Part shown: positions 1 to 14,328 of the stretch, piece after piece
Numbering within the stretch: the first letter of the stretch is position 1
How the letters are laid out: each line of letters starts with the position of its first letter
Assembly: GCA_038227875.1 (NCBI GenBank)
Contig: JBBRPR010000111.1
Coordinates: forward strand, 1 to 14,328
Origin: Planctomycetota bacterium
GTDB taxonomy: Bacteria; Planctomycetota; SZUA-567; H5-PLA8
DNA: 14,328 nucleotides
Direction of reading: 5' to 3'
Position numbers and translations under genes: made by a program
Notes under the pieces: generated by a model
Seen by the model: only the letters and a program-made list of their open reading frames with translations
Databases searched by the model: none
Told to the model about the DNA's origin: nothing

Positions 1-143
1 ACATGTTCATGGGAAGCGACGCGGGTGGCCGGCGCGCCGCGATTCTCTATTCGTTGATTCAAAGCTGCAAACAGCACAGCGTCAATCCGGTGCAGTACCT
101 GCGCGACGTACTGGTCCGTATTTCGACTCACCCCGCCAGCCCG
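1..143 (+). pseudogene. tnpC: IS66-family transposase TnpC, C-terminal part (cut by window edge, interrupted by IS21 at 144)
   Basis: The frame from base 3 reads MFMGSDAGGRRAAILYSLIQSCKQHSVNPVQYLRDVLVRISTHPAS. This matches the IS66 TnpC C-terminal pattern (F.GSD.GG.RAA..YSLI.tcK..gv.P..YL.DVL.RI..HP). It is not in the ORF track. Confidence 0.9.
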
Positions 144-194
144 TGTCATTGAGCACTTCAAAACCACCCTAAGCTAAGCACTTCAAAAACACCC
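144..194. repeat. IS21 right terminal inverted repeat with two tandem subrepeats
   Basis: TGTCATTG, then AGCACTTCAAAACCACCC (152-169) and AGCACTTCAAAAACACCC (177-194), period 25 bp. Multiple terminal repeats are typical of IS21. Confidence 0.9.
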
Positions 195-234
195 GCCTAA
201 TAATGACCGATGACGCCCACAACGGACGCCATTT

Positions 235-1023
235 CTATTGATTCGATTCTGTTTTGCAAGCCTTGTCTGCCGGCGCCTTGGCTGGCGTGGGCTTTTCGGC
301 TTTGTCTTTGAGCCTATAGCTGCGGCCGTTGAAGGCGATGATCTCGGCGCGGTGCAGAAAGCGGTCGAGGATCGCGGTGGCGGTCGGCACGTCGCCCAGC
401 AGTTTGCCCCAGTCCTCCAGCGGGCGGTTGGAGGTCATTATCGTCGAGCGCAGTTCGTAGCGGCGATGGATCACTTCGAATAGATATTCGCCGGAGCGCT
501 TGGGCAATTGCTTCATGCCCATGTCGTCAATAATGAGTAAGTCCGGTTTGAGATACTTGGCTAACGTGCGGTCCATCTGCGCGAGCGCCTCGTCCTCCAG
601 AAAGTCGCGGACGACATCGAAGATGGAGCGGTATAGGACCGTGAAGCCGATGCGGATAACCTGATGACCGATGGCTTGAGCCAGATGGCTCTTGCCCGTG
701 CCTGGCGGGCCGACCAACAAACAATCGGAGTGTTTGCGGATGAAGTCGCCGGTGGCCAGTTCGTAGAACTGCGAGCGTTTGATCGTGGCGTTGAATTGCC
801 AGTCGAAGTCCTCCAAGTTCTTCTGGTCGCGGAAGCCGGCAGCTTTCACGCGCCGGTCAACCAGGCGGCTGTTGCGCAGCGCCAGCTCGTCACGCAGGAC
901 CAGTTCGAGGAACTCCGCGTGATTGAGATGATTGCCGCCGGCCTCTTGCAGCCGCACGTCCAGCGTTTTAATGATGCCCGACAGCCGCAACTGACGCAGC
1001 ATGTCTGTAAAGCGTTCGTTCAT
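235..1023 (-). CDS. istB: IS21 helper AAA+ ATPase IstB
   Basis: Walker A GPPGTGKS, Walker B LLIIDD, TSNRPLEDWG, AILDRFLH and GRSYRL. ATG 1023 (preceded by GGGGA) is preferred; 1035 is the alternative start. Confidence 0.95.
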   Translation of the reverse strand: MNERFTDMLRQLRLSGIIKTLDVRLQEAGGNHLNHAEFLELVLRDELALRNSRLVDRRVKAAGFRDQKNLEDFDWQFNATIKRSQFYELATGDFIRKHSDCLLVGPPGTGKSHLAQAIGHQVIRIGFTVLYRSIFDVVRDFLEDEALAQMDRTLAKYLKPDLLIIDDMGMKQLPKRSGEYLFEVIHRRYELRSTIMTSNRPLEDWGKLLGDVPTATAILDRFLHRAEIIAFNGRSYRLKDKAEKPTPAKAPADKACKTESNQ

Positions 1024-1036
1024 TGCATTCCCCATT

Positions 1037-1248
1037 CTGCGTTCGCACTCGAACGCGGTCTCTCGATTGTCACTTCCGCACAGGCGGAAGCGTTCTCTTG
1101 CAATTCAGCGGCGAGCAACGATCTTGTCGGTATCCGGCGAAACGGACGCGGGCTCTGCTGGCGAGCATCCCGCCAGGGATAGCCGGTGCGCGGATGAACC
1201 GTCGAGGGGAGCGGAAGCTCCCTTCGACGCATCCGTTCAGCCGCGCGC
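1037..1248. other. Tandem stem-loop array in the istA-istB spacer (candidate structured RNA/ssDNA element)
   Basis: Stems at 1037-1045/1050-1058, 1073-1079/1084-1090, 1133-1136/1143-1146 and 1158-1163/1171-1176 (extended by 1151-1154/1181-1184). A long hairpin spans 1186-1248, with a 13-bp inner stem closing a GGAA loop. The pairing is seen directly; the function is unknown. Confidence 0.55.
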
Positions 1249-1311
1249 ATGCCTCGTAAAACGCAACAAAAAGTGCGCGTAGCGCTCCTTCTTCTGTTCG
1301 AATGACGCTCA

Positions 1312-2868
1312 TCAGTTGAACTCCACGCCGACGATGGCGCCGTAGTCATTTAAGTTGCGGATCAGCGGATGTTCCGCCATGAACTCGAACTGCTCCTGGT
1401 CCAGTGGTTCTTTCAGCAATGCGCGCAGCGCCCGCAGCCGGAACGCGCCGTGCGCGCAGGCCCGTTCGCAGGCGTGTTCGACGGCATTGGCCGAGTGGCG
1501 TTTGACCAGCGACAGCAAGCCCACGATTACCCGCACGCCCTCGATGGCGCGCTCGTTCAAGACCGCTTCTGCCCAGCGGCCGGACTGTGGACCGATCAGC
1601 CGCGCGCGGCGCAGCAACTCCGTCGCGCCACGTTCGACCATCGCCATCTTGCGTGATGCCAGATGCTGCGGCGCCGTGCTGAACTTCCCCAGTTCGTGTC
1701 GCGCATGCAGCGCGATCTGCTCGAAGCGGCTGTTGAGGATGCGGACCAGGTGGCTGTCCCAGCGCGCCCAGACGGTGTGCCCCATGTATTCCGGAGGCAC
1801 GGAGTAGTACGCCTTGGCGACCTCGATATGGCCGTCGCGGTGAACGACGCGCTGGTCTTCGTGGAAGGACGGAAAGCGTTCGGCCGGCAACGGCAGCAAC
1901 GCGCTCTTTTCGATCTCAAACAGTTGCCGGACTTGTTTCTTCGTCGTGCCATGGATGCGCAGATCGGCCACTTTTTGTTCCCAACGCAGCAGATGCGAGT
2001 TCTCTTCGGCCAGCGCGAGAAAGTCGCGGTCTTTCAGCGCGTTCTCTTTAACGTAGTTGATGCCTGATTCGATCTTCCCTTTGTGACGCGGCGTGTATGG
2101 CTTTGTGGGCAGCACCACTGTCCCGTAGTGCTGGCAGAATGCGATGATCTTCGGATGCAGTTCCGGATCGTACCAATCCGCCTGCGCAACGGCGGCGCGG
2201 AGATTGTCGATCACCAGGGTGCGAGGCACGCCGCCCCAGTGCCGGAAGGCATTCTCGAAAGCCGAGAGCAGATTGTCGGTCGTCTGTTGAAAGAACGCCT
2301 CGCTGTATGCCTTGCGCGAGAAGCTCAAGCCCAGCCGCAGCACATGCGTCCGCCGGCGCTTTCCGTCCGCGCCGATGATCGGCGCGCCAGCTCCGAAATC
2401 AGCCTGGGCCTCCGTACCTGGCTCACATTCCAGACGTCGGAAGGGTAGTTCATCTCTGCCGCACAGACGCCGCACCATCCGCTGAACAGATGCATACGCG
2501 CCATCGAAACCGTGCTCGGTTCGCAGATCCTGGAAGATCCGCTGGGCCGACAGCCCCGCTTCGATCTTCTGTTCAATCTGCGTCCGAAACGGTTCGCACT
2601 TGCTGCGGCCGGTTGCGTGCTCAACCTCTGCCGAGCCGGTGAGCACTTCAGCGGGGGTGGGTGTTTTTGCAGCTCCGGCGTCCGGCGAGCCGGTGAGCAC
2701 TTCCGGCTCAGTGGCTGCATTTGCCGTCCTGCCCCTTACATCTCTCAAGTAACGGCGCACCGTTCCTCGATCGATGTTCAACTCCTTCGCAATCTTACGT
2801 TTAGACCAGCCCTGCTGGTGCAGGGTCAAAATCGCTTCGATCTCCGCCATGTTGAGATGGTTGGCCAT
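1312..2868 (-). CDS. istA: IS21 DDE transposase IstA
   Basis: N-terminal HTH (GWSKRKIAKELNIDRGTVRRYL), second HTH (GLSAQRIFQDL), and catalytic motifs EAQADFG, LVIDNLRAAV and KGKIESGINYVK. It also has RIHGTT and a C-terminal beta region (VHRDGHIEV..YYSVP). Start is taken as ATG 2868, behind a purine-rich GGAGGGG/GGGA stretch, rather than TTG 2913. Confidence 0.95.
   Translation of the reverse strand: MANHLNMAEIEAILTLHQQGWSKRKIAKELNIDRGTVRRYLRDVRGRTANAATEPEVLTGSPDAGAAKTPTPAEVLTGSAEVEHATGRSKCEPFRTQIEQKIEAGLSAQRIFQDLRTEHGFDGAYASVQRMVRRLCGRDELPFRRLECEPGTEAQADFGAGAPIIGADGKRRRTHVLRLGLSFSRKAYSEAFFQQTTDNLLSAFENAFRHWGGVPRTLVIDNLRAAVAQADWYDPELHPKIIAFCQHYGTVVLPTKPYTPRHKGKIESGINYVKENALKDRDFLALAEENSHLLRWEQKVADLRIHGTTKKQVRQLFEIEKSALLPLPAERFPSFHEDQRVVHRDGHIEVAKAYYSVPPEYMGHTVWARWDSHLVRILNSRFEQIALHARHELGKFSTAPQHLASRKMAMVERGATELLRRARLIGPQSGRWAEAVLNERAIEGVRVIVGLLSLVKRHSANAVEHACERACAHGAFRLRALRALLKEPLDQEQFEFMAEHPLIRNLNDYGAIVGVEFN
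2632..2703. repeat. 18-bp direct repeat inside the istA linker carrying terminal-repeat motifs
   Basis: CGAGCCGGTGAGCACTTC occurs at 2632-2649 and 2686-2703 (protein EVLTGS twice). GGGGTGGGTGTTTTTG at 2654-2669 is identical to 2950-2965 in the left end. Confidence 0.85.
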
Positions 2869-2929
2869 TCCCGCGTCCCCTCCGATGTTTCGGAGCAGGA
2901 TACGTTCCGGCAAACGCTGACCCTAAAAT

Positions 2930-2979
2930 GGCTGCTTTTGAAGTGCTTAGGGGTGGGTGTTTTTGAGTGCTCGCTGACA
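2930..2979. repeat. IS21 left terminal inverted repeat with two tandem subrepeats
   Basis: The reverse complement reads TGTCAGCG-AGCACTCAAAAACACCC-ACCCCTA-AGCACTTCAAAAGCAGCC, matching the 144-194 end. Confidence 0.9.
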
Positions 2980-3044
2980 GCCGCGTCCACGAGCTGGTGC
3001 CGGCGCACTGGAAGCCGCCCGCGATCATACTCCTGCCGATGTAA
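2980..3044 (+). pseudogene. tnpC: Remaining 3' tip of IS66 tnpC after the IS21 insertion
   Basis: From 2982 it reads RVHELVPAHWKPPAIILLPM* (TAA 3042-3044). This continues THPAS into the typical HP..R..EL.P..W ending of TnpC. Confidence 0.88.
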
Positions 3045-3074
3045 TTCGGGCCTCGCATGCCAATGCAGGAATTT

Positions 3075-3102
3075 TAGACGGCGCTGTCTACGGAACGCTT
3101 AC
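3075..3102. repeat. IS66 right terminal inverted repeat
   Basis: ...CGGAACGCTTAC ends at 3102. The reverse complement GTAAGCGTTCCG matches the GTAAGCG terminus characteristic of IS66 and lies 58 bp after the tnpC stop. The inner boundary is approximate. Confidence 0.8.
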
Positions 3103-3133
3103 CAAAGTCGGGACGATAATTCAGAATCTACAT

Positions 3134-3718
3134 CTATAGCTTAATCACGATGACATCCGCTCCCAGTGTCCACCGGATAGCAGACGGGCGGTCATTGCGA
3201 GTCCATTGGGGCAGCCATTTCGTCCCATCGAACGATTCCACTTTGGGCTCTTCGACGCTCCGGTACAGAACCATTTGTACGGTAGGCATGGGCGGAGTCA
3301 CGTCGATTCGATCGATTTCAAAAATGCTGTCCATCTCACGTAGCACGTATTCAATGGTTGTCGCGCGCTTAGGCGTGGGAAATGCGGCGGTCTGAAAACT
3401 CGACAATCCGTCTGCCGTAGTTACGAATTTCAAAATAGATTGTTTGCCGGCTGAGGCGGACACGGGTTGAGTGTTGGTTGCACCGGAGGCTCCAGCTGAG
3501 GACTTCGAAGGGAGCCATCCGCGCAGATCGCGGCGAATAATTTCTTCAAACCGATCCCGGCGCGTTTGTTTTGAGGTCAGGGCAGCCTGACGCCGCGCTG
3601 TACCCGACATGGCCTGCGTTGCCGAATAGACGCAGGTTGCCAACAGCACCGTGATGGCGACTGCCAGGATCAATTCGATCAGTGTGAAACCAGGCGGACG
3701 GCTGACGCGATGACTCAT
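3134..3718 (-). CDS. gspJ: T2SS minor pseudopilin, GspJ-like
   Basis: Prepilin motif G/FTLIEL plus hydrophobic helix, IIRRDLRGW, and C-terminal W...W....RPSAIRWTL typical of GspJ. ATGA overlap with gspI. Confidence 0.8.
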   Translation of the reverse strand: MSHRVSRPPGFTLIELILAVAITVLLATCVYSATQAMSGTARRQAALTSKQTRRDRFEEIIRRDLRGWLPSKSSAGASGATNTQPVSASAGKQSILKFVTTADGLSSFQTAAFPTPKRATTIEYVLREMDSIFEIDRIDVTPPMPTVQMVLYRSVEEPKVESFDGTKWLPQWTRNDRPSAIRWTLGADVIVIKL

Positions 3719-4116
3719 TTCCCGGCTCCAGGTTGAGCCGCAGTCCCTTTGAGCGGGCCATAGTGAAACGATGTTTTGGAAAGCACCGCGCCGGCGGCAC
3801 CACGTACGGTAACCGTCACGCGTTGCAGATTGACCAGACCCTCAATTCCGGCGGGCTCCTGCTGCACCGACCAGGAATAGCCGGGCAGGGCGTCCAGAGA
3901 TCCGTTCAGACTCGTTTCCGAGCCACACAAAATGGCATCGAGTTTTGACTCGCACGCATGTTCGAGCCGAATGCGATCCTGCGCTCGCAATGTGCGCTGG
4001 AGTGCGTTGCGGTTGACGGACATCAGCAGAATCATCGCGCCGGCGGTGATTCCCAGTGCGACCATGACTTCAACCAGTGTGAACCCGCGCCGAGGACGGG
4101 TGTCAATGCTCAACAT
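3715..4116 (-). CDS. gspI: T2SS minor pseudopilin, GspI-like
   Basis: RRG/FTLVEVMVALGI, short globular part with G....LPGYSW and LQRVTVTV. Start ATG 4116 has a GAGG RBS; the ORF-track start at 4179 overlaps deep into gspH. Confidence 0.82.
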   Translation of the reverse strand: MLSIDTRPRRGFTLVEVMVALGITAGAMILLMSVNRNALQRTLRAQDRIRLEHACESKLDAILCGSETSLNGSLDALPGYSWSVQQEPAGIEGLVNLQRVTVTVRGAAGAVLSKTSFHYGPLKGTAAQPGAGK

Positions 4117-4588
4117 AGTTGACCTCATTGACCAGTGGATCGATTTGAACGGCGATGAACTTTCCTTTGTCCACGCCAATGTCGATAGTAACGTCCGGAG
4201 CGGTGCCTCTGGGATCGAAGTACAAAGTTATAGGTGACGTGAGTTCCAGGGATGCCGCGTTTTTGACAGACAGTAATTTTGACGGGGCCTGACACGCATA
4301 TTTCACAATAACCGGCGCGGCTTCTATGGCGCTTGGACTGGCCTCGATGGGCGTCGAAAGAATCCATTCGCTGGTGCCAGTATCCAGGCGCAACGCATAG
4401 ATCCGCTGTTCGCCCATGGCCCGTTCGCGATAGGTAGTAATCAGATTTCCCAGTTTGCGGGATTCTTGAATGATTCGCTGCCGCGGCGAGCCCAGATCAA
4501 GCCGTACGATAACAATGCCCATGACGACGCTGATCAGCGCCAGGACGAGCGTCAACTCGATGACGGTGAAGGCGCGTGCGCGAATCAT
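4103..4588 (-). CDS. gspH: T2SS minor pseudopilin, GspH-like
   Basis: RARA/FTVIEL prepilin motif, YRERAM...RIYALRLD and C-terminal LYFDPRG typical of GspH/FimT. Lies between gspG and gspI. Confidence 0.8.
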   Translation of the reverse strand: MIRARAFTVIELTLVLALISVVMGIVIVRLDLGSPRQRIIQESRKLGNLITTYRERAMGEQRIYALRLDTGTSEWILSTPIEASPSAIEAAPVIVKYACQAPSKLLSVKNAASLELTSPITLYFDPRGTAPDVTIDIGVDKGKFIAVQIDPLVNEVNYVEH

Positions 4589-4590
4589 AA

Positions 4591-5031
4591 TCAGTGCGAG
4601 CCATCCAGGTTGCGGGAGGAAATGTCCTGGTTGACGCCACTTCCGCCTTCCTTACCATCCGCACCAAGGGAGATGATTTCAAAGTCGCCATTGCCGCTGT
4701 GGAAGACGAAGTCATGCCCCCACGGATCTTTGGCGACTTTTGATCCTTTCAAGTAGCCGCCGTCCTGCCAGTTCGGACAGTCGCCGGGCTTGTTGACCAG
4801 CTCATCAAGCGATTGGGGGAGGCGATTGCAATTGGCCTGAAACTCAATGACCGCGCCTTCCAATTGAGAGAGTTGCGCCTTGGCCGCGGCAACTTTGGCT
4901 TGATCGGTTTTGCCTGCGTAGCGGACAATCACCAGTGTTGCGAGGACGCCGATGATGGCAATGACGACGATCAACTCAACCAGCGTGAAACCGCGCTTCA
5001 TCGCGGGACGCCCCAGGTTTGTGATATTCAT
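4591..5031 (-). CDS. gspG: T2SS major pseudopilin GspG
   Basis: KRG/FTLVELIVVIAIIGVLA, LP.SLDELV, W..GYL, DPWG and the SLGADGKEGG...DI calcium-loop motif. GGAG RBS upstream of 5031. Confidence 0.93.
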   Translation of the reverse strand: MNITNLGRPAMKRGFTLVELIVVIAIIGVLATLVIVRYAGKTDQAKVAAAKAQLSQLEGAVIEFQANCNRLPQSLDELVNKPGDCPNWQDGGYLKGSKVAKDPWGHDFVFHSGNGDFEIISLGADGKEGGSGVNQDISSRNLDGSH

Positions 5032-5048
5032 TTCTACTCCGCTCCGAT

Positions 5049-6281
5049 TTATTGAACCTGACTGAAATCAGTAATGGGCAGTAAAATTGCCGCAACAATG
5101 AACCCTACGACCAATCCGAGAAACACAATGAGGATTGGATTGATCAGATCCGTCAGACGTCCGGACACGACCTCTACTTCTTCATTGTAACCGGCGGCGA
5201 CATCTTTGAGTACGCGGGCCAGTTCGCCGGATTCCTCGCCGACACCTACTACAAATCCAATAGATTTGGGTAGCGCGCTTCCCTGTTTTATTGCGTCCGA
5301 GAGATCCCGCCCTTCAAGGACCGCCTTCTCTAAAAGAATGATTTCGTCTTCAAGGACTTTGTTACCGACGGCGTTTCGGACTACTGCGAGAGCCTGCGCC
5401 ACGGGGATGCCGCTGAAAATTAGATTGCTCATGGTGTCGGCCCAGCGAGCGACGGCTTGCTTTTTGAATAAGTTTCCCAATACAGGCAGTTTCAAGAGCA
5501 TCCCGTCAAGCATACGCCGGCCCGAATTTGTTTTAATAATCGCGTTACCCAGAACTGCCAACCCCACCACCGTCAAAATGAGCGCGGGCCACCAATTCTG
5601 AATAAACGTGCTGATGAACAGCAGTACTTCCGTCGGCCACGGCAGCGCGTGCTGCTGTTCCAAAAGCACCGCGGTGACTTTCGGTACGACAAAGGCCATC
5701 AGAAACGTCAGTACCAGTATCCCGATGGAGGACATCAGCGCCGGATAGGTCAGCGCGGAGACGACCTTATCGCGTAGCCGCTTCTGTCGGAGGTAGTAAG
5801 TCGAGAGTTCACTGAGAACGTGGGGCAGGCTACCCGCCGCCGCGCCAGCCCGCGCCACGCAGACTGCCAGTTCTGGAAAATACTTGGGATGGCACGACAG
5901 GGATTCGTCCAACGATGCGCCTTCGCGCACCCGAATCGCCACGTCCTGAAGGACATTGCGAAACCGTACGTCTTCGACCTGCTCGGAAAGCACGGAAAGT
6001 GCCTGAGTCAGCGGCAGGCCGGTTTTCAAGAGCATCGAGAGATGCCGTGAGAATTCGGACAGCAGGTCTAGCCGCCGACCACTAAAGCCGGACCACGAGG
6101 AACCCTGTTGCTTAGCGTTGATTTTGGCGATCGTGCTCGAAGCAATCGCATCGGCCAGGCTCTTGGCATGCAGTCCCCGTTCGCGAAGACTTGATCGTGC
6201 TTCGGCGGGGGTTCCCGCGTCCAGCGTCCCGCGAACGGTATTACCAGAGGAGTCCAGAGCTTCGTATTTAAAGAGTGCCAT
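5049..6281 (-). CDS. gspF: T2SS inner-membrane platform protein GspF
   Basis: MALFKYEALDSSG start, FSRHLSMLLKTGLPL, SALTYP, VVPK, LPWPT and VGEESGEL, with a C-terminal TM ending AILLPI. ATG at 6281. Confidence 0.95.
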   Translation of the reverse strand: MALFKYEALDSSGNTVRGTLDAGTPAEARSSLRERGLHAKSLADAIASSTIAKINAKQQGSSWSGFSGRRLDLLSEFSRHLSMLLKTGLPLTQALSVLSEQVEDVRFRNVLQDVAIRVREGASLDESLSCHPKYFPELAVCVARAGAAAGSLPHVLSELSTYYLRQKRLRDKVVSALTYPALMSSIGILVLTFLMAFVVPKVTAVLLEQQHALPWPTEVLLFISTFIQNWWPALILTVVGLAVLGNAIIKTNSGRRMLDGMLLKLPVLGNLFKKQAVARWADTMSNLIFSGIPVAQALAVVRNAVGNKVLEDEIILLEKAVLEGRDLSDAIKQGSALPKSIGFVVGVGEESGELARVLKDVAAGYNEEVEVVSGRLTDLINPILIVFLGLVVGFIVAAILLPITDFSQVQ

Positions 6282-6311
6282 AATCAAATTTCGAAGCGTC
6301 GTGGAAACGCA

Positions 6312-7901
6312 TCACTCCAAATCCATCTGCGTAGCGTTTCGCACTTCATCCAGAGTCGTAATACCCTGCGCAACCTTGCGCAGTCCGTCGCGACGGAGCG
6401 TCAACATGCCACGCTCGATGGCAACGCGTTTGATGTCGCTGGCAGCGGCACGCGACGAGATCAGGCCGCGAATCGCATCGTTCATGAACAAGAATTCGTA
6501 GATGCCGATTCGTCCGGAGAATCCCGTGTTAAAGCACGAATCACATCCGACGCTGTGCATGAGAGACGTGCAGTTCATGCTCTTCAGAAAATCCATCTCG
6601 GGCAGAAGCCATCCCGACGCATTCTCCGATTTCCAATCCACGTCTTTCCGCACGGCACACTTCGGGCATAAGCGACGTACCAGCCGCTGCGCGATCGTGG
6701 CATTTAGTGAACTCGCGACCAGAAAGGGCTCAACGCCAAGGTCTAAAAGACGAGTGACACTGGACGGCGCATCGTTGGTATGGAGCGTCGAGAGAACGAG
6801 ATGACCCGTGAGTGCGGACTGGATTGCGACGGTCGCGGTTTCCAGATCGCGGATTTCGCCGACCATGATGATGTCGGGGTCTTGGCGAACGAGAGCGCGG
6901 AGCCCGCGGGCGAAGGAGAGTCCTTTTTTCTCGGAGACCTGGGTCTGACAGATGCCGGGAAGCTGATACTCGACCGGATCTTCGAGAGTGAGGATATTCA
7001 AATCAGGAGAGTTCATACCCGAAAGCATGGCGTACAAGCTGGTTGTCTTGCCACACCCCGTGGGTCCGGTGACCAGCACAATCCCATGAGAAAGTCCCAG
7101 GATCTTCTTGATGCGGTCCAAGTCTTCTGCCGCCAAGCCCAGACCTTCGATGGACATTAAGCCGGTGTTTTTGTCGAGCAGACGCATTACCACGCGTTCG
7201 CCGTGAACACTTGGCAATGTCGAGATACGCAGATCCACCCGGCGTTCGCCGATGCGGATCGTAACGCCGCCGTCCTGGGGCAGCCGGCGTTCGGCGATAT
7301 CCATGCGGCCCATGACTTTAATACGGCTGGCAATGGCATCTCGCACGTCGGCTCGCAGGGTGGCGCGTTCGTAAAGAACACCGTCGATACGGAAACGTAC
7401 ACGTATTCCAGTTTCGGATGGCTCGATATGGATGTCTGACGCACGCTGCTTGACCGCCTGTAAGAGCATGGCGTGAACCAGTTTTACCGCTGGCGCTTTG
7501 TCATCGAGTTCGAGAACGTCTTCGGTCAGTGTGATTTCACCGCCATCCGGCGTGTCGGCGGCAAGTTCTTCGGCGATGGACGTGACTTCGCGGGATTCCT
7601 CATGGTACGCGCGGGAAATAAGAACGAGGACATCCTTGCATTCGGCGGGAATGACTTCTACTGCGCAATCCAGCCGGAACGCAATACGGTCTGCCACCCA
7701 GGCTCGATCCGGAAAACCCGTAGCAAGCGTGTAAGAGACCAGATTTCCTTCAACCTTTTTGGCAACCGCAACAATCGCATGCTCACGCGCAAACCGGAGC
7801 GGGATGCGCTCCAGATATTCGCCCGGTACGGTTAAGCGATCCCATTCCAATGAAGGATTCTTCAGGGATGGCTCCGTTAGAGTTGAAGACTTATCGACCA
7901 T
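6312..7901 (-). CDS. gspE: T2SS assembly ATPase GspE
   Basis: ASDIHIEP, RFRIDGVL, ERRLPQDG, Walker A GPTGCGKT, TLEDPVEY, RQDPDIIMVGEIRD, TGHLVLSTLHTND and a CPKC...CDSC zinc motif. Start ATG 7901 overlaps the gspD end by 11 nt. Confidence 0.96.
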   Translation of the reverse strand: MVDKSSTLTEPSLKNPSLEWDRLTVPGEYLERIPLRFAREHAIVAVAKKVEGNLVSYTLATGFPDRAWVADRIAFRLDCAVEVIPAECKDVLVLISRAYHEESREVTSIAEELAADTPDGGEITLTEDVLELDDKAPAVKLVHAMLLQAVKQRASDIHIEPSETGIRVRFRIDGVLYERATLRADVRDAIASRIKVMGRMDIAERRLPQDGGVTIRIGERRVDLRISTLPSVHGERVVMRLLDKNTGLMSIEGLGLAAEDLDRIKKILGLSHGIVLVTGPTGCGKTTSLYAMLSGMNSPDLNILTLEDPVEYQLPGICQTQVSEKKGLSFARGLRALVRQDPDIIMVGEIRDLETATVAIQSALTGHLVLSTLHTNDAPSSVTRLLDLGVEPFLVASSLNATIAQRLVRRLCPKCAVRKDVDWKSENASGWLLPEMDFLKSMNCTSLMHSVGCDSCFNTGFSGRIGIYEFLFMNDAIRGLISSRAAASDIKRVAIERGMLTLRRDGLRKVAQGITTLDEVRNATQMDLE

Positions 7902-10056
7902 TGTGTTGACCGTTTTCCGGGACTTCAATGATCTCGGCACGGTTTTCGAGCCGCTCGTTAATCTCATTCCTGAACTTGGAATCCCTGGAAAGCTTATCGA
8001 CTTCGTCCTTCTTCTTTTCCGATTCACTTTCAAGATCGGCAAAGGACACGTTGGTAAGAATCTTCGGGCGCACAAACAGGTAGAGCCGACTGACCACTTT
8101 CTGTTTGCTCGTTTTGGAGAACAGATGACCCAATCCAGGCATGTTCATCAGACCGGGGATGCCGCTCTTCAGGTTGTCGGACTCGTCGCGCGTAAATCCG
8201 CCGACGACAATGGTCTGCCGGTCGGGAATACATACTTTCGTGGTGGCGTTGTTGGAAACTTTGGGTGGTGGAATTCCAGCGCCGGCTGGCGGGCCAGTGA
8301 ATTCCTCCACGGTCTGGACGATTTCAAGATTCATGTAGCCATCCGCGGAAATGTGCGGCGTGATTTTCAAGGACGTGGTGGCATCGGCAAATCCGCTGAA
8401 AGAGGTATTCGTGGTTGCCGTTCCCTGGGACGTGGTGACGGTGGGCTGACTGACCTTCGTCGTGAAAGACGCCTCCTCGTTGTCGTTCACCAGCAGGAGC
8501 GGCTGGCTGACGATGGAAACGTTCGACTTGGTGGACAACGCGTTCAAGATCACCTGGAACTTGTCGCCATTCACAAATCGGAAAGCAGAACCGGCAACAG
8601 AACCGATCACCGATTGGGTCGGAAAGCCGCGCAAGGGGACAGTGACGCCGGATGTGCCTGTTCCCGTACCCGTGCCGGTTGTGGTTCCATTGGCCGTACC
8701 GTCGGACTGAGTACCAAGCCCGAACCCGGTTCCGCCGTCAACCTTTCGGTGCGCCGTCAGATCATTGAGCGAAAGAAATTCGGTCCCCAAATCCATAGTG
8801 TCCTGACCTGTTACCTGCACGATTGCCACTTCGATCAGCACCTGACCTTTGCGGCGGTCCAGATTTTGCAGGATGGTTTCTACTTCTCTGTGAACAGAGG
8901 CGTCGCCAGCAACCACGAGCATATTGAGACCTTCCACCGCAACGATGTCGGCGGGTAAGTTGTTGCTGCCATTCTTCTTTGACGTATCGTGATTCTTGAA
9001 CGTAGCGATGGGTTGCACGGCCGCCGGGAGTAATAGCGGAGCGTTTGGGTTTCCCGTGACTGGCGTTGGGGGAAACGCTGGAGCCAGTCGCTCCGGCGCC
9101 GAATGCAAGGGATTCGGGGTTCCCGATTCTTCAGCCGATCGTGACGCCAGCGCAATGCCCAGCAGTTCGCTGACGTAGTCCACCAGTTCTTTGACGGGAA
9201 CATTCTTGAGTTTGTAGTATTTGATGGTGCGTCGTGCCGCTGGTGAATCGACATCCAAGATCTTGAGGAATGCCTTCGCCTGCGTCACTTCGGCATCCGG
9301 TCCCAGCAGATGCAGTATATTCAGCCGTTCGTCTTTGACGACGGAGAGGTGGTCCTTTCCGCCTTCGCCGTTCTTTGCCTTGTTTAACGCCTGCATGTAT
9401 TCGGTGAGCAGACTCTGGGCTCGCTCCACGGGCATGTTGATGATTGTTGCGGGAAAGACAGTGACGGGGTCACCGGGGACGTCCACCAAGGTCAAAATCT
9501 TTTCCATGCGCTTGATGGACGAAGCGACATCGTTAACCATCAGCAATTCGCTGTTGGGAACCTGAAGAACGGTGCCAGTGGCAGAAAGTTCGGGCGTGAG
9601 GATCGCAATCACCTTCGTCGCCGGAACGTTCTGCAACTTCACCAGGTAAGACATCATAGCATCGCCAGCGGGGAGTGTTTCGCCTCGAACGATCACGGGC
9701 TGTGCGCCAGGCTCTTTCTGTGCGCCTTGGGCCGCGACGATTTTCTCCAGATTGATTCCCGAGCCTTCCACCGGAATGATCACGAAGCCATTAAGCTGGC
9801 AGACGGATTGAAACACGCGGTAGAATTCGGACGGGGTGATGGGCGTATCGCTTTGCAATGTCACGCGCTTGGAGCGGAGCAGGTTATCGTCAAACAGGAA
9901 GGTGCGTTTGGTTACGCGTTCAACCTGTTTGGCGACGGTAGCCAGGTCCAGTCCAGCCAGGTTGATCTTGATTTTCGCGTCGTCATCCGCAGCGCGAACG
10001 CCCGGTAGTCCGGCCAGCACGATGGCGAAAAGACACGCTGATATACACGCTTTCAC
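7891..10056 (-). CDS. gspD: T2SS outer-membrane secretin GspD
   Basis: Sec-type signal peptide (..GVRA/ADD), N0 domain and three N1/N2/N3-like repeats. The secretin core includes QVLIEVAIVQV, SQPLLLVNDNEEASF, LKITPHIS and GIPGLMNMPGLGHLF...LYLFVRPKIL. Confidence 0.95.
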   Translation of the reverse strand: MKACISACLFAIVLAGLPGVRAADDDAKIKINLAGLDLATVAKQVERVTKRTFLFDDNLLRSKRVTLQSDTPITPSEFYRVFQSVCQLNGFVIIPVEGSGINLEKIVAAQGAQKEPGAQPVIVRGETLPAGDAMMSYLVKLQNVPATKVIAILTPELSATGTVLQVPNSELLMVNDVASSIKRMEKILTLVDVPGDPVTVFPATIINMPVERAQSLLTEYMQALNKAKNGEGGKDHLSVVKDERLNILHLLGPDAEVTQAKAFLKILDVDSPAARRTIKYYKLKNVPVKELVDYVSELLGIALASRSAEESGTPNPLHSAPERLAPAFPPTPVTGNPNAPLLLPAAVQPIATFKNHDTSKKNGSNNLPADIVAVEGLNMLVVAGDASVHREVETILQNLDRRKGQVLIEVAIVQVTGQDTMDLGTEFLSLNDLTAHRKVDGGTGFGLGTQSDGTANGTTTGTGTGTGTSGVTVPLRGFPTQSVIGSVAGSAFRFVNGDKFQVILNALSTKSNVSIVSQPLLLVNDNEEASFTTKVSQPTVTTSQGTATTNTSFSGFADATTSLKITPHISADGYMNLEIVQTVEEFTGPPAGAGIPPPKVSNNATTKVCIPDRQTIVVGGFTRDESDNLKSGIPGLMNMPGLGHLFSKTSKQKVVSRLYLFVRPKILTNVSFADLESESEKKKDEVDKLSRDSKFRNEINERLENRAEIIEVPENGQHNGR

Positions 10057-10096
10057 TCGGTGTTCCCCCCTGCTTCACAACGAAGTGCTACATCGC

Positions 10097-10654
10097 TTAA
10101 GGATTGCGCTGACCCCTGGAATCTTCGGCGACTACCGGCGCATCGCCGTTGTTCGCTGTCGGCGGAATCTCAGCACTTTCGCCGCCGTTTACGCTCAATG
10201 TCACCGCCTTGCCGTCGTAGTTGAACGTTACTGTCGAGTCGATCTTCGCCACCGTCGCACCGACGCCCTCGACAGTCTCCCCTGTTTTGTAATTGTTAGT
10301 TTTGTTGAGCCGGATGGATTCGATGATCGCTTCAGTGGTTTTGGGATCCCCGAAGTCCATGATGCCCTTTACTCGAATCATGGAACTCAGCGGCGGGGCT
10401 GCCGGTTTGGAGATGGTTTCAATAATGACTGCGCCGGCTTTGGACATCTTCAGATCTGAGAGCTTTGCCAGCTTGGGATCCACGGGGACCTTTGCTGCGG
10501 TCTTTTTGGATTCGGAGCGGGTCAAAGATTCTGCTGGAGTTGCGGTCGCACGATAGTTCGCAGCCTTGACGCCCAGAACAATCGCCAGCGTCATCAGCAG
10601 AACAGCAGCGGCATTTAATATCTTTCGAAGGAGCGCCTCAAGTCCCCGTGTCAT
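10097..10654 (-). CDS. gspC: GspC-like protein (N-terminal TM, HR-type beta domain, no PDZ)
   Basis: Single N-terminal TM and linker, then VKGIM...EAIIE...YKTGETVEG..VAKID..VTFNYDGKAVTL resembling the GspC/PilP HR fold. Directly upstream of gspD, with an ATGA overlap with gspK. Confidence 0.7.
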   Translation of the reverse strand: MTRGLEALLRKILNAAAVLLMTLAIVLGVKAANYRATATPAESLTRSESKKTAAKVPVDPKLAKLSDLKMSKAGAVIIETISKPAAPPLSSMIRVKGIMDFGDPKTTEAIIESIRLNKTNNYKTGETVEGVGATVAKIDSTVTFNYDGKAVTLSVNGGESAEIPPTANNGDAPVVAEDSRGQRNP

Positions 10655-11676
10655 GGCTCAATCTCCTCGTACGTCAAGAGTTTTAACTGCTGCGCCGTAC
10701 CCGTTTGTGGGCTGACTTCGAAGTACCCAAAGGCCATTCGCCGTTCGCCGTTGATCTCGGCGATTAGGCGTGCCGAAATACAGGCACTTTTGACGGAGAC
10801 GCGATCCTGAACGTTGGTGTAGAGATCGCGAACAATCTGAGTCTGGCCATTCACGGTGGCGCGTTGAACAATCCCGGGTACGAGTTCTAGTTCCTTCGGC
10901 GTCTTAAAGGCCGTAATGGGATCGTTAGACGTATTTTCATTTCCGCGCCAGGATTCAATTTGAGCGACCAGCTCTTCGTTGTATTCGCCATCAAGCGCAT
11001 AGAGCACCGGGGCTGTTGCCGTATTCAGGTTCACCCTGCCGTCACCCCAGGTCGTCAAATAGGCCGATAGTGGCTTCTGCACGACTGTTGCCTCAATGAC
11101 GTTGCCAAAGAGAACGTCTTTACCAAGTCCGGCTTCACGCAGGCCATCCAGGGTATATAGCGCATCCGGCGCTGCTGTGCCGTTATTGATGCCCAGCCGC
11201 GTCTTTAACGCCAGTTCGATCGCATCCCAGCGCTGCGAATTGCCGTCGTCTGATTTCCGCAAATAAACCAACAGCCGCGCCAGGGATTTTCGATAACGCA
11301 CCGCCTCGTCGGATGTGCCCATGGCTTTCAGAACATTGAGTTTCCCAGACTCATCGTTGAGTTGAATCGTGAGGTGCTCACGCTCACCTGTCTCGACCTT
11401 TACCATCCTCGCCCATGGATCAGACGCGGTGTCGTAACCTTGAGTGGATGAGGGGCGCCCCTCAATGATCAATCCTTTCGAAACTTCCAGCCCGGCGTTG
11501 AAGATTCTTCGAAAGCCCGCATCGCGAGTTGTTCGTATGGCTTTAGCGCTGGCCAGGTTTGCGCGATGGGCCAGTTCAACGGCGAGTATGGAAAGTATCG
11601 CTATCGCGCCTAAGACCAGCAGCAGGACTGCGCCACGCGGCCGGGGAGTTGGACTGAGATCCGCAAGTACGTTCAT
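10651..11676 (-). CDS. gspK: T2SS minor pseudopilin GspK
   Basis: RG/AVLLLVL prepilin helix lacking Glu5, YDTASDPWA, DESGKLNV, GRVNLNTATAPVLYAL and F....EL.LVPGI. ATG 11676 overlaps the gspM stop (ATGA). Confidence 0.9.
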   Translation of the reverse strand: MNVLADLSPTPRPRGAVLLLVLGAIAILSILAVELAHRANLASAKAIRTTRDAGFRRIFNAGLEVSKGLIIEGRPSSTQGYDTASDPWARMVKVETGEREHLTIQLNDESGKLNVLKAMGTSDEAVRYRKSLARLLVYLRKSDDGNSQRWDAIELALKTRLGINNGTAAPDALYTLDGLREAGLGKDVLFGNVIEATVVQKPLSAYLTTWGDGRVNLNTATAPVLYALDGEYNEELVAQIESWRGNENTSNDPITAFKTPKELELVPGIVQRATVNGQTQIVRDLYTNVQDRVSVKSACISARLIAEINGERRMAFGYFEVSPQTGTAQQLKLLTYEEIEP

Positions 11677-12191
11677 TTGCCCGCCTCTTTCGGTGCATCC
11701 CTGGGTGCCGGCTTCTCTACGAGCCACCGAACGGCGAGCACAATTTCCGCTTCCTGGTAAGTATCCGCCTTGTCGCCTTTGGGTTTGATGCGGATTTCCT
11801 TGATCCGAGCACCACCGCCCTGGGACTCCAGATCTGCCATAAACGCGACCAATTGCTGATGAGGTACGTTTACGGCGCGTGTCAGCACGATTCGCTCGCG
11901 GACGGACTCGCCGGCATCGCGTTCGTTCTCGCTCAAGTAAAGAATTGAAATTCCGTTCCTGGCACCCGACTCCTGGACCAATTGCTTCAAGTCCAGCTTT
12001 GCGCCGCCAGCGGCATTGGCCCCATACGCCTCCGGATGACTATTGGTTAGGCTTTGGGCTTCATGCAGCAGGGCACGCGACTCGTCCAACTGGGTGCGTG
12101 CCGCGTCATACTCGGCGTACCGACTGCCCGTGAAGACGCTGACGCCAAGAAGGCAGATCACCACCAGGCTGGGAAGGAGTGCTTTGGTCAT
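11673..12191 (-). CDS. gspM: GspM-like bitopic inner-membrane protein
   Basis: N-terminal TM and coiled segment, then LKQLVQESGARNGI and VPHQQLVAFMADLES...RIKEIRI, a ferredoxin-like pattern of GspM/PilO. ATGA-coupled to the gspL-like gene. Confidence 0.72.
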   Translation of the reverse strand: MTKALLPSLVVICLLGVSVFTGSRYAEYDAARTQLDESRALLHEAQSLTNSHPEAYGANAAGGAKLDLKQLVQESGARNGISILYLSENERDAGESVRERIVLTRAVNVPHQQLVAFMADLESQGGGARIKEIRIKPKGDKADTYQEAEIVLAVRWLVEKPAPRDAPKEAGK

Positions 12192-13516
12192 TTTGGCAGC
12201 GCCTCACGTGCCGGCACTGCTGGAGTTCGATAGTCCAGACGCATCCGGACCACCACTTCCGACTCCTTGGTCTCGAATTCCCCGCGAGCGGCTAGGCTTA
12301 AGGACTGGTTGAGCGCAGACTCCAATCCGGCGGCAAATGCCAATGGATCGCCCACGCCGCGTTTAACCCTGCCGTTCATGCGGCCACCGTCTGGCCCCAG
12401 TTGCAGTGACTCCACGGACAAACCCAGTGGCTCAGGATTGGGAAATACTGCCGCTACTTCGCTCCATAGCGTCAGGGCTGAGGGGAATCGGTTCACATCG
12501 GCCGTTTTATTGCGTTGAGCTAGCACCTGCTTCATGCGCGATGCCAGCGTGCCTGCGCGGTACGTTTCTGCGGGAAGCGCTTCTCGCCAGAGCACATTTT
12601 CCTGCTTTTCAGTCGCTGTAATCTCCGATCGCAGGTTTTGCGTCAATTTGTCCAGATAGATGCCGCTAACCAGGATCGCAGCCACTGCCGCCGTAGCACT
12701 GAGAAGCAGCGGTGTTCTCAACAGGGAGAGCGCATTTTTGGGAGCATCTGGAGCGGAGCGCAACAGATTCGCAGACTGTCCGGTCTCGGCCATCGCGGCG
12801 GCCGCAGCCACCGCAAGCAAAGCTGAGACTGTCAGACTTTCTCGCAGTTCGACTGTTGAAGTGTCTGGCTCCGTGCTGGTTGAACCGCGGTCGATCGGAA
12901 ACCATCGCCATGAAACAATTCGTTCCTGGTGGAATTGAAGTTCGGCGGCTTCACCCGCGTCAGCGAACACCAAATTAGCGGCCTGCGACTTTTCCCGCAG
13001 CGAATGCGCAAGCAACGAAGGTGCCGACGAAATGAGATCCAGTTTCGACTCCGGCAGGTGCTCCTTGAGCTGTGCTCGCAGTTTGGCCAGGTCGGCTAGA
13101 GGCATTGAGGCGAGATCGACGACACTGCCTTCAGCCGTCGTGGAAATCAGGCGGACATCGATCGCCAGATCCTCGCTGGTCGAACCCGCGCAACGGCTCT
13201 CCGCCAAGGAGCCGGCGATGGCTTCGACTTCACGCTCTGATCGGTAAGGAACCAGAAAACAATCGCCGCATGCTAAATCCGCGTTGGAGAGCGCGAAGCG
13301 GACGTGAGCATCCTTCCATTCCACAGGCATGGCTTTCAACACCGAACCCAACATCTGGTCAGCGGGCATGCGCGGAGGCCGGGGCCATTGCGCAGAATAG
13401 GCAAGTTGGGGTGTGCGGCCACGGTAGGTCAAACCCACAATGACTAGATTGCGTCTGGAAATTGAGATACCGATGTGTCGTCGCAAACGTTGTCCAATCA
13501 ATATATTTGAGCACAA
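12188..13516 (-). CDS. gspL: GspL-like protein (cytoplasmic actin-like region, TM, periplasmic domain)
   Basis: N-terminal IGISIS beta motif, NLLR before a TM helix, coiled region, and SALTLWSEV...VESLQL...MNGRV. Position before gspM fits. The sequence is divergent and has no ATG start; TTG 13516 or TTG 13486 are the candidates. Confidence 0.65.
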   Translation of the reverse strand: MCSNILIGQRLRRHIGISISRRNLVIVGLTYRGRTPQLAYSAQWPRPPRMPADQMLGSVLKAMPVEWKDAHVRFALSNADLACGDCFLVPYRSEREVEAIAGSLAESRCAGSTSEDLAIDVRLISTTAEGSVVDLASMPLADLAKLRAQLKEHLPESKLDLISSAPSLLAHSLREKSQAANLVFADAGEAAELQFHQERIVSWRWFPIDRGSTSTEPDTSTVELRESLTVSALLAVAAAAAMAETGQSANLLRSAPDAPKNALSLLRTPLLLSATAAVAAILVSGIYLDKLTQNLRSEITATEKQENVLWREALPAETYRAGTLASRMKQVLAQRNKTADVNRFPSALTLWSEVAAVFPNPEPLGLSVESLQLGPDGGRMNGRVKRGVGDPLAFAAGLESALNQSLSLAARGEFETKESEVVVRMRLDYRTPAVPAREALPK

Positions 13517-13544
13517 CAGCTTGTCGGATTAGCCAGGATCATTA

Positions 13545-13572
13545 AGGTTATTCCCGCATTGCCGGAAGTCAA
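13545..13572 (-). promoter_or_regulatory. Candidate sigma70-type promoter for the gsp operon
   Basis: Minus strand TTGACT (13572-13567), 16-nt spacer, TAACCT (13550-13545), just upstream of gspL. Motif match only. Confidence 0.35.
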
Positions 13573-13811
13573 CGACCCTCTGGTGCGCAGATCGTGCGCT
13601 CCGGCAGTGAGCCGTTGCGAACGACCAGGCGGTGGCCGCGCTCGTCGCGTTCCTGAGCGAAACGCTGGATGTATTCTTCCACTTCCATGTCCAGTGCCGC
13701 GGCTAGCATTTTCCGCGCTCCCTCACGCAACATTTCCGTCAGTACATCCGTAGCGGTTCCGCGTCCGCTGGGTTGTTGACCCCCAAACTCCGCTGCCGTA
13801 ACCTCTCCCAT
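13569..13811 (-). pseudogene. IS256-family (Mutator) transposase N-terminal fragment
   Basis: DVLTEMLREGARKMLAAALDMEVEEYI...DERGHRLVVRNGSLPERTI is the typical IS256 N-terminus. Similarity breaks after ERTI (about 13590), and the catalytic domain is absent. Confidence 0.88.
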
Positions 13812-13921
13812 GTGGCGTATCCTTTCTGTCCCGCTGTGGGGCGTTGGTGTTCCTTTGACAGATCACCAAGGATACGCCGCACTTTTCCTCCCGCCCAATC
13901 CACAAGATTTGACAATACCCC
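13590..13921 (-). mobile_element. Truncated IS256-family element (left end only)
   Basis: CACAAGATTTGACAATACCCC (13901-13921) resembles IS256-family termini and lies about 90-110 bp upstream of the transposase ATG. No matching right end is seen. Confidence 0.72.
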
Positions 13922-14139
13922 AAGGACAAAGCCGGCAAGGCAACGTTCTCGGGCGAGGACGTTCCTTCGCGGCGACGATTCAAAATGGCACATGGTGTGG
14001 TATCTGGAACATCGGCCCCAACGCCAACACACCCATGCAAATCGCGGCGACGATCAAGATCGGAAATGCTGCCTACGAAACGATCGTCTCTCCGTCGCAC
14101 ACCACAACCATCCGCGCCGGCGCAAAGTTCTCGAAATGA
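13922..14139 (+). pseudogene. 3' remnant of an unknown gene, cut by IS256 and probably frameshifted
   Basis: From 13922 KDKAGKATFSGEDVP, then in the shifted frame from 13966 FAATIQNGTWCGIWNIGPNANTPMQIAATIKIGNAAYETIVSPSHTTTIRAGAKFSK*. It is protein-like and beta-rich but has no native start. Confidence 0.4.
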
Positions 14140-14190
14140 CGAGCGAAATTCGAAATCCGGATTCTGTGAGCGTGCGAATAAAGTTTGGGG

Positions 14191-14328
14191 GGGGTATCCA
14201 TTTCGAGCAAGTAATCCTACTTTGCCATAGCTGTCGCCTCCGTTCCGCCGAGGAGATTCCGGTAGTATGTCGAGGGCGTAGACGCCGCCTGCTGCATAAG
14301 CCGGTAGAAGAGCAGCCCGCGGGTGGCA
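14191..14328 (-). mobile_element. IS1595-family element, right end (extends beyond window)
   Basis: Transposase C-terminus followed about 25 bp later by GGGTATCCATTTCGAGCAAG, resembling IS1595-family termini. The exact end is ambiguous within the G8 run at 14187-14194. Confidence 0.7.
14217..14327 (-). CDS. IS1595-family transposase, C-terminal end (partial at window edge)
   Basis: ATRGLLFYRLMQQAASTPSTYYRNLLGG...* matches the RG.LFYRL.QQA.....Y..i tail that follows FRFNRR in IS1595 transposases. It is not in the ORF track. Confidence 0.78.
   Translation of the reverse strand, partial: ATRGLLFYRLMQQAASTPSTYYRNLLGGTEATAMAK

Follow-up and report, generated by a model that had tools for sequence, protein, structure and literature searches.

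IS21 operons are normally translationally coupled, and istA and istB genes that abut or overlap are a hallmark of the family. In the window, i.e. the whole 14,328-nucleotide stretch of Planctomycetota DNA analysed here, an IS21-family element departs from this arrangement with a gap of 276 nt between the two genes (1036–1311), raising the question of what the intervening sequence is. In other respects, the element (144–2979, minus strand, with ends TGTCA...TGACA read by eye) has the features of its family: istA (1312–2913, minus strand) encodes a transposase with an HTH (HTH_7/HTH_38) and a DDE core (Pfam rve, Mu-transpos_C_2), and istB (235–1035, minus strand; a start at 1023 is equally possible) lies downstream and encodes the AAA+ helper ATPase (Pfam IstB_IS21, PF01695, 5.7e-66). 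The element breaks another transposase-like ORF, which may be IS66-like, at its 3' end (...LIQSCKQHSVNPVQYLRDVLVRISTHPAS / RVHELV...; window 1–172 and 2980 onward). We also noticed that GAGCACTTCAAAA(A/C)CACCC is repeated at both ends of the element (144–200 and 2930–2979) and that CGAGCCGGTGAGCACTTC occurs twice within the 5' coding part of istA (2631–2705), where it encodes a repeated ...EVLTGS... peptide; these repeats may be additional IstA-binding-site-like repeats. The remainder of the window (3134–14,328) has many ORFs on the minus strand.

To place the gap among related elements, one genome per species was scanned, giving 73 loci with IstA relatives, 57 of which also had IstB. In 53 of the 57 loci, istB started upstream of the computed istA stop or no more than 13 nt past it; the exceptions were L004 (255 nt), L070 (115 nt), L012 (48 nt) and L023, in which istA reads through. 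Thus, the istA-istB spacing in the window is unusual, and the gap of about 280 bp described in an initial annotation of the sequence is close to the measured value. As RNA, the spacer folds with -125.4 kcal/mol on the plus strand (z -4.15) and -123.3 kcal/mol on the minus strand (z -3.49), and on either strand it beats all 200 dinucleotide-shuffled controls, the comparison that the initial annotation had proposed for its folds. The largest stem-loop was also described accurately: a stem formed by 1200–1212 (CGTCGAGGGGAGC) and 1217–1229 (GCTCCCTTCGACG) closes a GGAA loop (1213–1216), the pairing CGGATG 1191–1196 with CATCCG 1230–1235, listed as an alternative, is present as an outer pairing, the imperfect pairs 1206/1223, 1187/1247 and 1038/1057 are G·U on the plus strand and A·C on the minus strand, and an A-rich tract is located at 1257–1272. 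The suggestion that five hairpins tile the spacer has to be modified; the hairpins at 1037–1058 and 1073–1090 exist, but the five do not constitute a single unit because 1036–1125 lies outside the module that is common to other elements.

Could the spacer be a decayed istA tail, a small ORF or a product of chance folding of GC-rich DNA? A small ORF of 80 aa does exist (1070–1312), with an ATG overlapping the istA stop (ATGA). None of the three spacer ORFs, however, had a match in Pfam, and a search for protein homologues of near lengths to the plus-strand spacer ORF (residues 28–75) gave no candidate. Moreover, across five IS21 elements, the frame of the conserved core with respect to istA differs, with stops upstream, and the module alignments contain indels that are not multiples of three; the codon-level conservation expected of a decayed istA tail, which the initial annotation had named as an alternative, was not found. 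Finally, chance folding is at odds with a spacer that outperforms all shuffled controls, and we consider all three of these readings to be highly improbable. The initial annotation had also likened translations of this stretch to tails of unrelated transposases. Such tails do arise by read-through: the conserved boxes of the module, when translated, give FTRH and GCSPAEPASVSPD, and in L023 (4080–4480) the istA frame is open through the whole module, adding a tail of ~80 aa that ends in ...FTRH...GYPLAGCSSAEPASVSPD, which explains the resemblance. Such read-throughs probably inflate transposase annotations with odd C-terminal tails.

What, then, is conserved in the spacer? Comparison of sequences identifies positions 1122–1262 as a single copy of a structured module of ~150–190 bases that is widespread. 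Homology to other IS21 spacers covers spacer positions 10–183 (numbered in the sense direction), so that the conserved element is limited to ~1122–1296 while the 90 nt beside istB (1036–1125) are private to the IS of the window. This private part holds two hairpins, one directly upstream of the istB start (1037–1058) and a terminator-like one on the plus strand, CTTCCGC/GCGGAAG plus CGTTCTCTTG (1073–1100). On the plus strand, the module begins with a conserved 74-nt hairpin domain (1122–1194), which matches the covariance model R1 with 73.7 bits (E 3e-19). Its closing stem P1 (1134–1138/1182–1186, coordinates read from the sequence) is followed by an almost invariant 9x8 internal loop consisting of GAAACGGAC (1139–1147) and CAGGGATA (1174–1181), by P2 (1148–1152/1169–1173) and by P3 (1156–1159/1164–1167), the loop of which is GGCG (1160–1163). 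Next to this domain are a long variable hairpin, Px (1188–1247), composed of a GC base, the CGGATG/CATCCG pairing and the apical stem with the GGAA loop, and a conserved single-stranded box CATGCCT-CG-TAAAAC (1248–1262), the complement of GTTTTACGAGGCATG; the general form of this box, as the complement of the istAB-sense strand, is CATGCCT-NN-AAAA. A terminator-like hairpin, AGTGCGCGTAGCGCT plus CCTTCTTCTG (1272–1296, plus strand), is preceded by the A-rich tract and located 16 nt away from the stop of istA; it has a homologous counterpart in L165 and in L004, the closest relative of the element (63% IstA identity), the spacer of which is homologous to that of the window. Read on the istAB-sense strand, the module has the order box GAGTTTTYNNAGGCATG, Px, P1, internal loop TATCCCTY / YTCCGTTTC, P2 and P3 (TGCT-loop-AGCA). 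On the complementary strand, GAAACGGA...AGGGAUA, which is favoured below, the loops read GAAACGGAR / RAGGGAUA and are purine-rich.

Covariation supports the fold of the 74-nt domain. In a set of 100 distinct pattern-selected 74-nt domains (A2), 87.0% of cells were paired compared with 79.7% in shuffled alignments, and 134 cells carried double changes compared with 51.1±7.0 after shuffling (0/500), while controls with slid partners gave at most 54. Because the search pattern fixes many columns in A2, a covariance model was built to obtain a set that is independent of the pattern (A3; 24 copies, 23 of them distinct). In A3, double changes were found in 12 of 17 pairs and in 65 cells compared with 23.8±5.0 in shuffled alignments (0/500); among them are exchanges between U-A and C-G in P3, and at the last P1 pair 10 copies have C-G and 10 have U-A. 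The covariation analysis called for in the initial annotation was therefore significant in both sets. The loop strands TATCCCT / TCCGTTTC were nearly invariant in A2 as well as A3 and across IS families. Px lacks a conserved sequence, yet it folds into a closed hairpin in 61 of the 74 non-redundant copies; the mean folding z is -3.9, and z is below -2 in 60 of 74. Its apical loop is not conserved and, therefore, only the two GGA motifs of the internal loop are constant.

Which strand folds is less clear-cut. We folded each copy with G·U pairs forbidden and counted isolated 1x1 mismatches within Watson-Crick helices. On the istAB-sense strand of 76 non-redundant copies, there were 41 A·C and 14 G·U mismatches, and 26 sequences had more A·C while seven had more G·U; base composition predicts a ratio of 0.77–0.94, and the binomial p value of 4e-4 is too small because the sequences are related. 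The excess of A·C was present in all three contexts, i.e. with a transposase upstream on the sense strand (19:4), with unassigned neighbours (13:5) and in the IS3 group-2 type (9:5), as well as within five subfamilies (22 versus 11). Similarly, of 74 copies, 45 had a lower MFE on the antisense strand (p 0.001). These observations support folding of the strand antisense to istAB, as had been inferred from three imperfect pairs in the window, and the strand preference appears to belong to the module and not to the host mRNA. Moreover, terminator-like hairpins on the plus strand frame the module on both sides (1073–1090 and 1272–1286), and a hairpin with a U-tract is located just upstream of the module on the sense strand in 56 of 92 copies compared with 35 of 92 after shuffling, a modest enrichment. 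On the other side of the balance, helix-end pairs in A2 include U·G when read on the istAB-sense strand, with 26 cases at one pair and 8 at a second; since A3 has C-G or U-A at the first of these pairs, part of this signal stems from the pattern used to select A2. Both G·U and A·C are infrequent (<4% of helix cells), a level that is low for RNA and would also fit ssDNA hairpins, and no sigma-70-like promoter was found in 850–1450. In total, the evidence is mixed, and the folded strand is most likely the complement of the pattern, i.e. the plus strand in the window, antisense to istAB.

The module is not confined to the IS of the window. The genome from which the window derives contains three copies; the two additional 60-nt core copies adjoin an IS3-type and an IS5-type gene, and there is no IS21 remnant nearby. 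In the copy on contig C20 of this genome (L080, ~132,850–132,890), a second TTCCGTTTC is present ~25 nt past the TTCCGTTTC of the core and is absent from sister loci. A 32-letter core pattern matched 4 of 401 genomes of the phylum, while the reversed control matched none, and it matched at least 120 metagenome stretches, a set that is shaped by a fixed pattern with many fixed columns. In the host's order, 9 of the 20 genomes searched had matches to the covariance model R1, with 1–8 copies each. In a plasmid collection, queries with canonical copies hit one record, plasmid pACPOL3 of the cultured organism Acidisarcina polymorpha; the window sequence itself had no match there. Among contigs matching window positions 150–2970, depth rises over 1100–1194 with loose ends before 1139, which we read as other elements with the same core. 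The Rfam search proposed by the initial annotation identified no family (Rfam 15 cmscan, E<=1, window 1–3200 and 12 canonical loci). The titles and abstract openings searched contained no description of the module, and their 10–11-mer matches were primers and the like; the supplements of bridge-RNA and seekRNA papers might hold related models.

We determined the genetic context of the module by comparing 107 of 109 flanking ORFs (two duplicates were dropped) from 81 metagenome loci with Pfam, and 40 were of transposase type. With orientation given relative to the pattern strand (in the window, the istAB-sense strand), the transposase gene was upstream of the module on the same strand in 22 loci (IS3, IstA, IstB, IS110, DDE_Tnp_1, resolvase), its stop often abutting the box, and downstream on the opposite strand, i.e. 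convergent and 12–158 nt away, in 12 loci (IS3/IS481-type). The gene was downstream on the same strand in three loci (IS110, IstB, DDE_Tnp_1 fragment) and upstream on the opposite strand in three others (IS481-type, resolvase, group II intron reverse transcriptase). The module is usually on the 3' side of a transposase gene. Neighbours were called from the longest ORFs, by which at least two loci were mislabelled: in L102 and L119, the ORFs without Pfam match shadow IS110 genes that run on the opposite strand. The 27 unassigned contexts may therefore hide more transposases.

Three unrelated IS families carry the module. In IS21 elements, it occupies two positions, being located between istA and istB in the window, L004, L023, L136, L147, L165/L184 and the distant L088 (25–29% protein identity), and after istB in L014, L017, L024, L069, L162, L091, L098 and L121; relatives lacking the module have unrelated sequence (L051, L009) or almost none (L005, L007) at the same place. 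The module is also inside two different IS3 lineages (NCBIfam transpos_IS3) in opposite orientations, lying within the inverted repeats in the sense direction in L092 and in the antisense direction in L097, L135 and L104. In an IS110 subfamily (L270, L102, L119), it lies ~20 nt past the transposase stop on the sense strand; L270 is the copy of A. polymorpha pACPOL3 (80,226–80,382), adjoining an IS110 gene. In several IS110 elements, as in the IS3 group-2 elements, the orientation of the module is opposite to that with the transposase gene upstream on the same strand. Module-bearing IS110 elements moreover have their own conserved 5' non-coding end of ~250 nt, which starts with CCTTGTATGTTGC and may be their own bridge RNA.

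A related 3.1-Mb genome (G410) has eight copies of the module located between ordinary housekeeping genes. Here, the box and the base of Px form terminal inverted repeats of ~31–42 nt of a short element, which occurs as full, truncated and shorter forms without the 74-nt domain as well as solo ends (L214–L256); a 21-nt end motif has 31 matches in this genome compared with 0 for the control. The same genome has an IS-like repeat in multiple copies, in which the box lies ~80 nt inward from the end; this repeat breaks contigs and its interior is unassembled. The MITE features were detected in G410 and not in the window or most loci: a search for a second inverted end across 88 metagenome loci gave a best inverted-repeat score of 6.26 compared with 6.36 for shuffled sequences, with four of the 88 exceeding their own shuffles. 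Nor was a link to Y1/RAYT found, since 10 Y1_Tnp loci in four genomes had no box and a single weak covariance-model match (15.6 bits), and no OrfB_IS605-type gene (the TnpB/IscB neighbour) was present among 107 + 25 flanking ORFs. Altogether, the idea in the initial annotation of a nucleotide-level module shared between IS families is supported by copies in IS21, IS3, IS110 and MITE-like repeats, far beyond near-identical IS copies.

Our best guess is that the module is a portable small-RNA (or ssDNA) cassette. Put more precisely, we give an even chance to the explanation that 1122–1262 together with the hairpin at 1272–1296 is an uncatalogued portable structured element outside the IS21 transposition machinery, proposed to be a small RNA; that the element acts as RNA at all we consider slightly more probable than the opposite. 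The structured RNA would be ~170–190 nt long, run convergent to istA and end at the hairpin and U-rich tract by the istA stop. The invariant purine-rich internal loop would be its main working part and would bind a conserved cellular partner. A CsrA-type protein is predicted as that partner by a weak link, i.e. by the two ANGGA motifs (the invariant ACGGA and AGGGA of the internal loop) and the presence of a CsrA gene in the genome of the window, and we regard this identification as improbable; Hfq was not found in this genome, which is 88% complete. The element would have spread by hitch-hiking, entering dispensable 3' regions of ISs by insertion or recombination and then being copied along with them. 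Its full complementarity to the mRNA between istA and istB could also let it act in cis as an antisense RNA that uncouples or dampens istB expression, a prediction that we hold to be doubtful. An antisense role against transposase mRNA cannot hold in general since the module is present in both orientations relative to transposase genes (22 versus 12 loci). A broader reading, tentative but one that we would place a little above the antisense effect, is a novel class of strand-specific RNA cassette that moves between IS21, IS3 and IS110 and as its own MITE-like copies, that engages by its loop a conserved host factor or the transposition or replication machinery, and that would be a trans-acting accessory gene of ISs.

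The serious rival to an RNA is a single-stranded DNA role, in which the module would be a strand-specific folded site used in IS copy-out replication or recognised by an ssDNA enzyme (HUH-type or another) that is also responsible for moving the cassette. Nearly all helix pairs are Watson-Crick, the strand asymmetry does not depend on how the transposase gene is oriented, and the module occurs in both orientations and at several positions within ISs. IS3, IS21 and IS110, the confirmed hosts, use circular copy-out intermediates. Moreover, the MITE-like copies in G410 have long inverted repeats, with the end motif found 31 times versus 0 in the control, and the long hairpin and box act there like MITE terminal inverted repeats, giving a DNA-level reason for part of the palindromy. 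Set against this, no Y1/HUH transposase is linked to the module, most genomes have 1–3 copies, a second inverted end is lacking outside G410, and invariant purine-rich internal loops are more typical of RNA-protein sites. In total, we find a ssDNA site rather unlikely, even as the leading competitor.

Two further readings are less probable still. The module could be an RNA element of the istAB mRNA itself (sense, minus strand), which would lie between the cistrons or in the 3'-UTR and either stabilise the transposase message or adjust the translation of istB. This would agree with the 22 of 40 transposase-type ORFs that lie upstream on the same strand with stops often abutting the box, with the minus-strand spacer that folds well, and with the U·G pairs at helix ends in the pattern-selected set; yet in these very contexts the mismatch asymmetry is strongest against the sense strand (A·C 19 versus G·U 4), on which the conserved loops are pyrimidine-rich, a hairpin with a U-tract often comes before the module, and IS3 group-2 and several IS110 elements carry it in the opposite orientation. 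Accordingly small is the probability that we assign to a sense-strand element. Smaller again is that of a purely selfish MITE-like or IS-end remnant that is functionless for the IS and is conserved only as it is young and copied. The MITE-like family of G410 with its truncated copies and solo ends and the patchy, low-copy distribution are in line with such a remnant; but the loop is invariant and the helices covary across IstA hosts of 25–67% identity, across IS families and across phyla-level samples, and the module is therefore too old and too constrained for neutral decay.

If the module is an RNA, as we prefer, it would be a common mobile-element accessory with a partner; if it is ssDNA, it would point to a novel step or enzyme common to these elements. 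It splits IS21 operons and would account for the odd C-terminal tails of transposase annotations. The cultured carrier, Acidisarcina polymorpha SBC82 with plasmid pACPOL3, makes the question testable.

How does the module compare with known systems? Like MITEs and REPINs, it is short, hairpin-rich, non-coding and dispersed, and in G410 its copies end in long terminal inverted repeats and occur in truncated forms and as solo ends. Unlike these, it is present in most genomes in 1–3 copies inside ISs, lacks a second inverted end elsewhere and a Y1/RAYT link, and holds an invariant internal-loop domain that is no end. REP/REPIN-RAYT systems, which have tens to hundreds of copies and a Y1 transposase with copies on its flanks, were ruled out by the three copies in the genome of the window and by the 10 Y1_Tnp loci, none of which had a box or strong covariance-model match, and omega-RNAs of TnpB/IscB by the lack of an adjacent TnpB or IscB gene (0 among the 107 + 25 flanking ORFs). 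The CsrA-titrating sRNAs of the CsrB/RsmZ family expose ANGGA motifs in loops, and ACGGA and AGGGAU are likewise invariant on the favoured strand of the module; however, the module has only two constant motifs, which face each other in one internal loop, and no Rfam match. Resemblances to the hammerhead CUGAUGA, SRP domain IV, boxA, a kink-turn, the integron attC core, the MOB-P nick site and the Y-RNA Ro site were dropped or remain impressions by eye.

RNA-OUT of IS10 and art200 of IS200 are, like the proposed RNA, small structured RNAs inside an IS that are complementary to transposase mRNA and could limit transposase. These RNAs, however, overlap the 5' translation start and are each specific to one IS, whereas the module is on the 3' side of istA, ends 90 nt before istB begins, and occurs in unrelated IS families and in both orientations. 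The bridge RNA of IS110 and the seekRNA of IS1111 share with the module a hairpin with a large two-sided internal loop in a non-coding IS end, and one module subfamily is located just 3' of the IS110 transposase gene on the sense strand. By contrast, the loop of the module is invariant over IS3, IS21 and IS110, while those of bridge RNA and seekRNA match the target and donor of each element. Moreover, the IS of the window encodes IstA and IstB only and no DEDD recombinase, only some other copies adjoin IS110 genes, and the module-bearing IS110 elements additionally possess their own 5' non-coding end, which is long and conserved. To our knowledge, the known IS-borne non-coding RNAs, i.e. antisense RNAs, bridge RNAs and omega-RNAs, each belong to a single transposase family. 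In soil and sediment bacteria, the covarying module described here, with its invariant loop, occurs in no fewer than three unrelated IS families and also as short repeats outside them.
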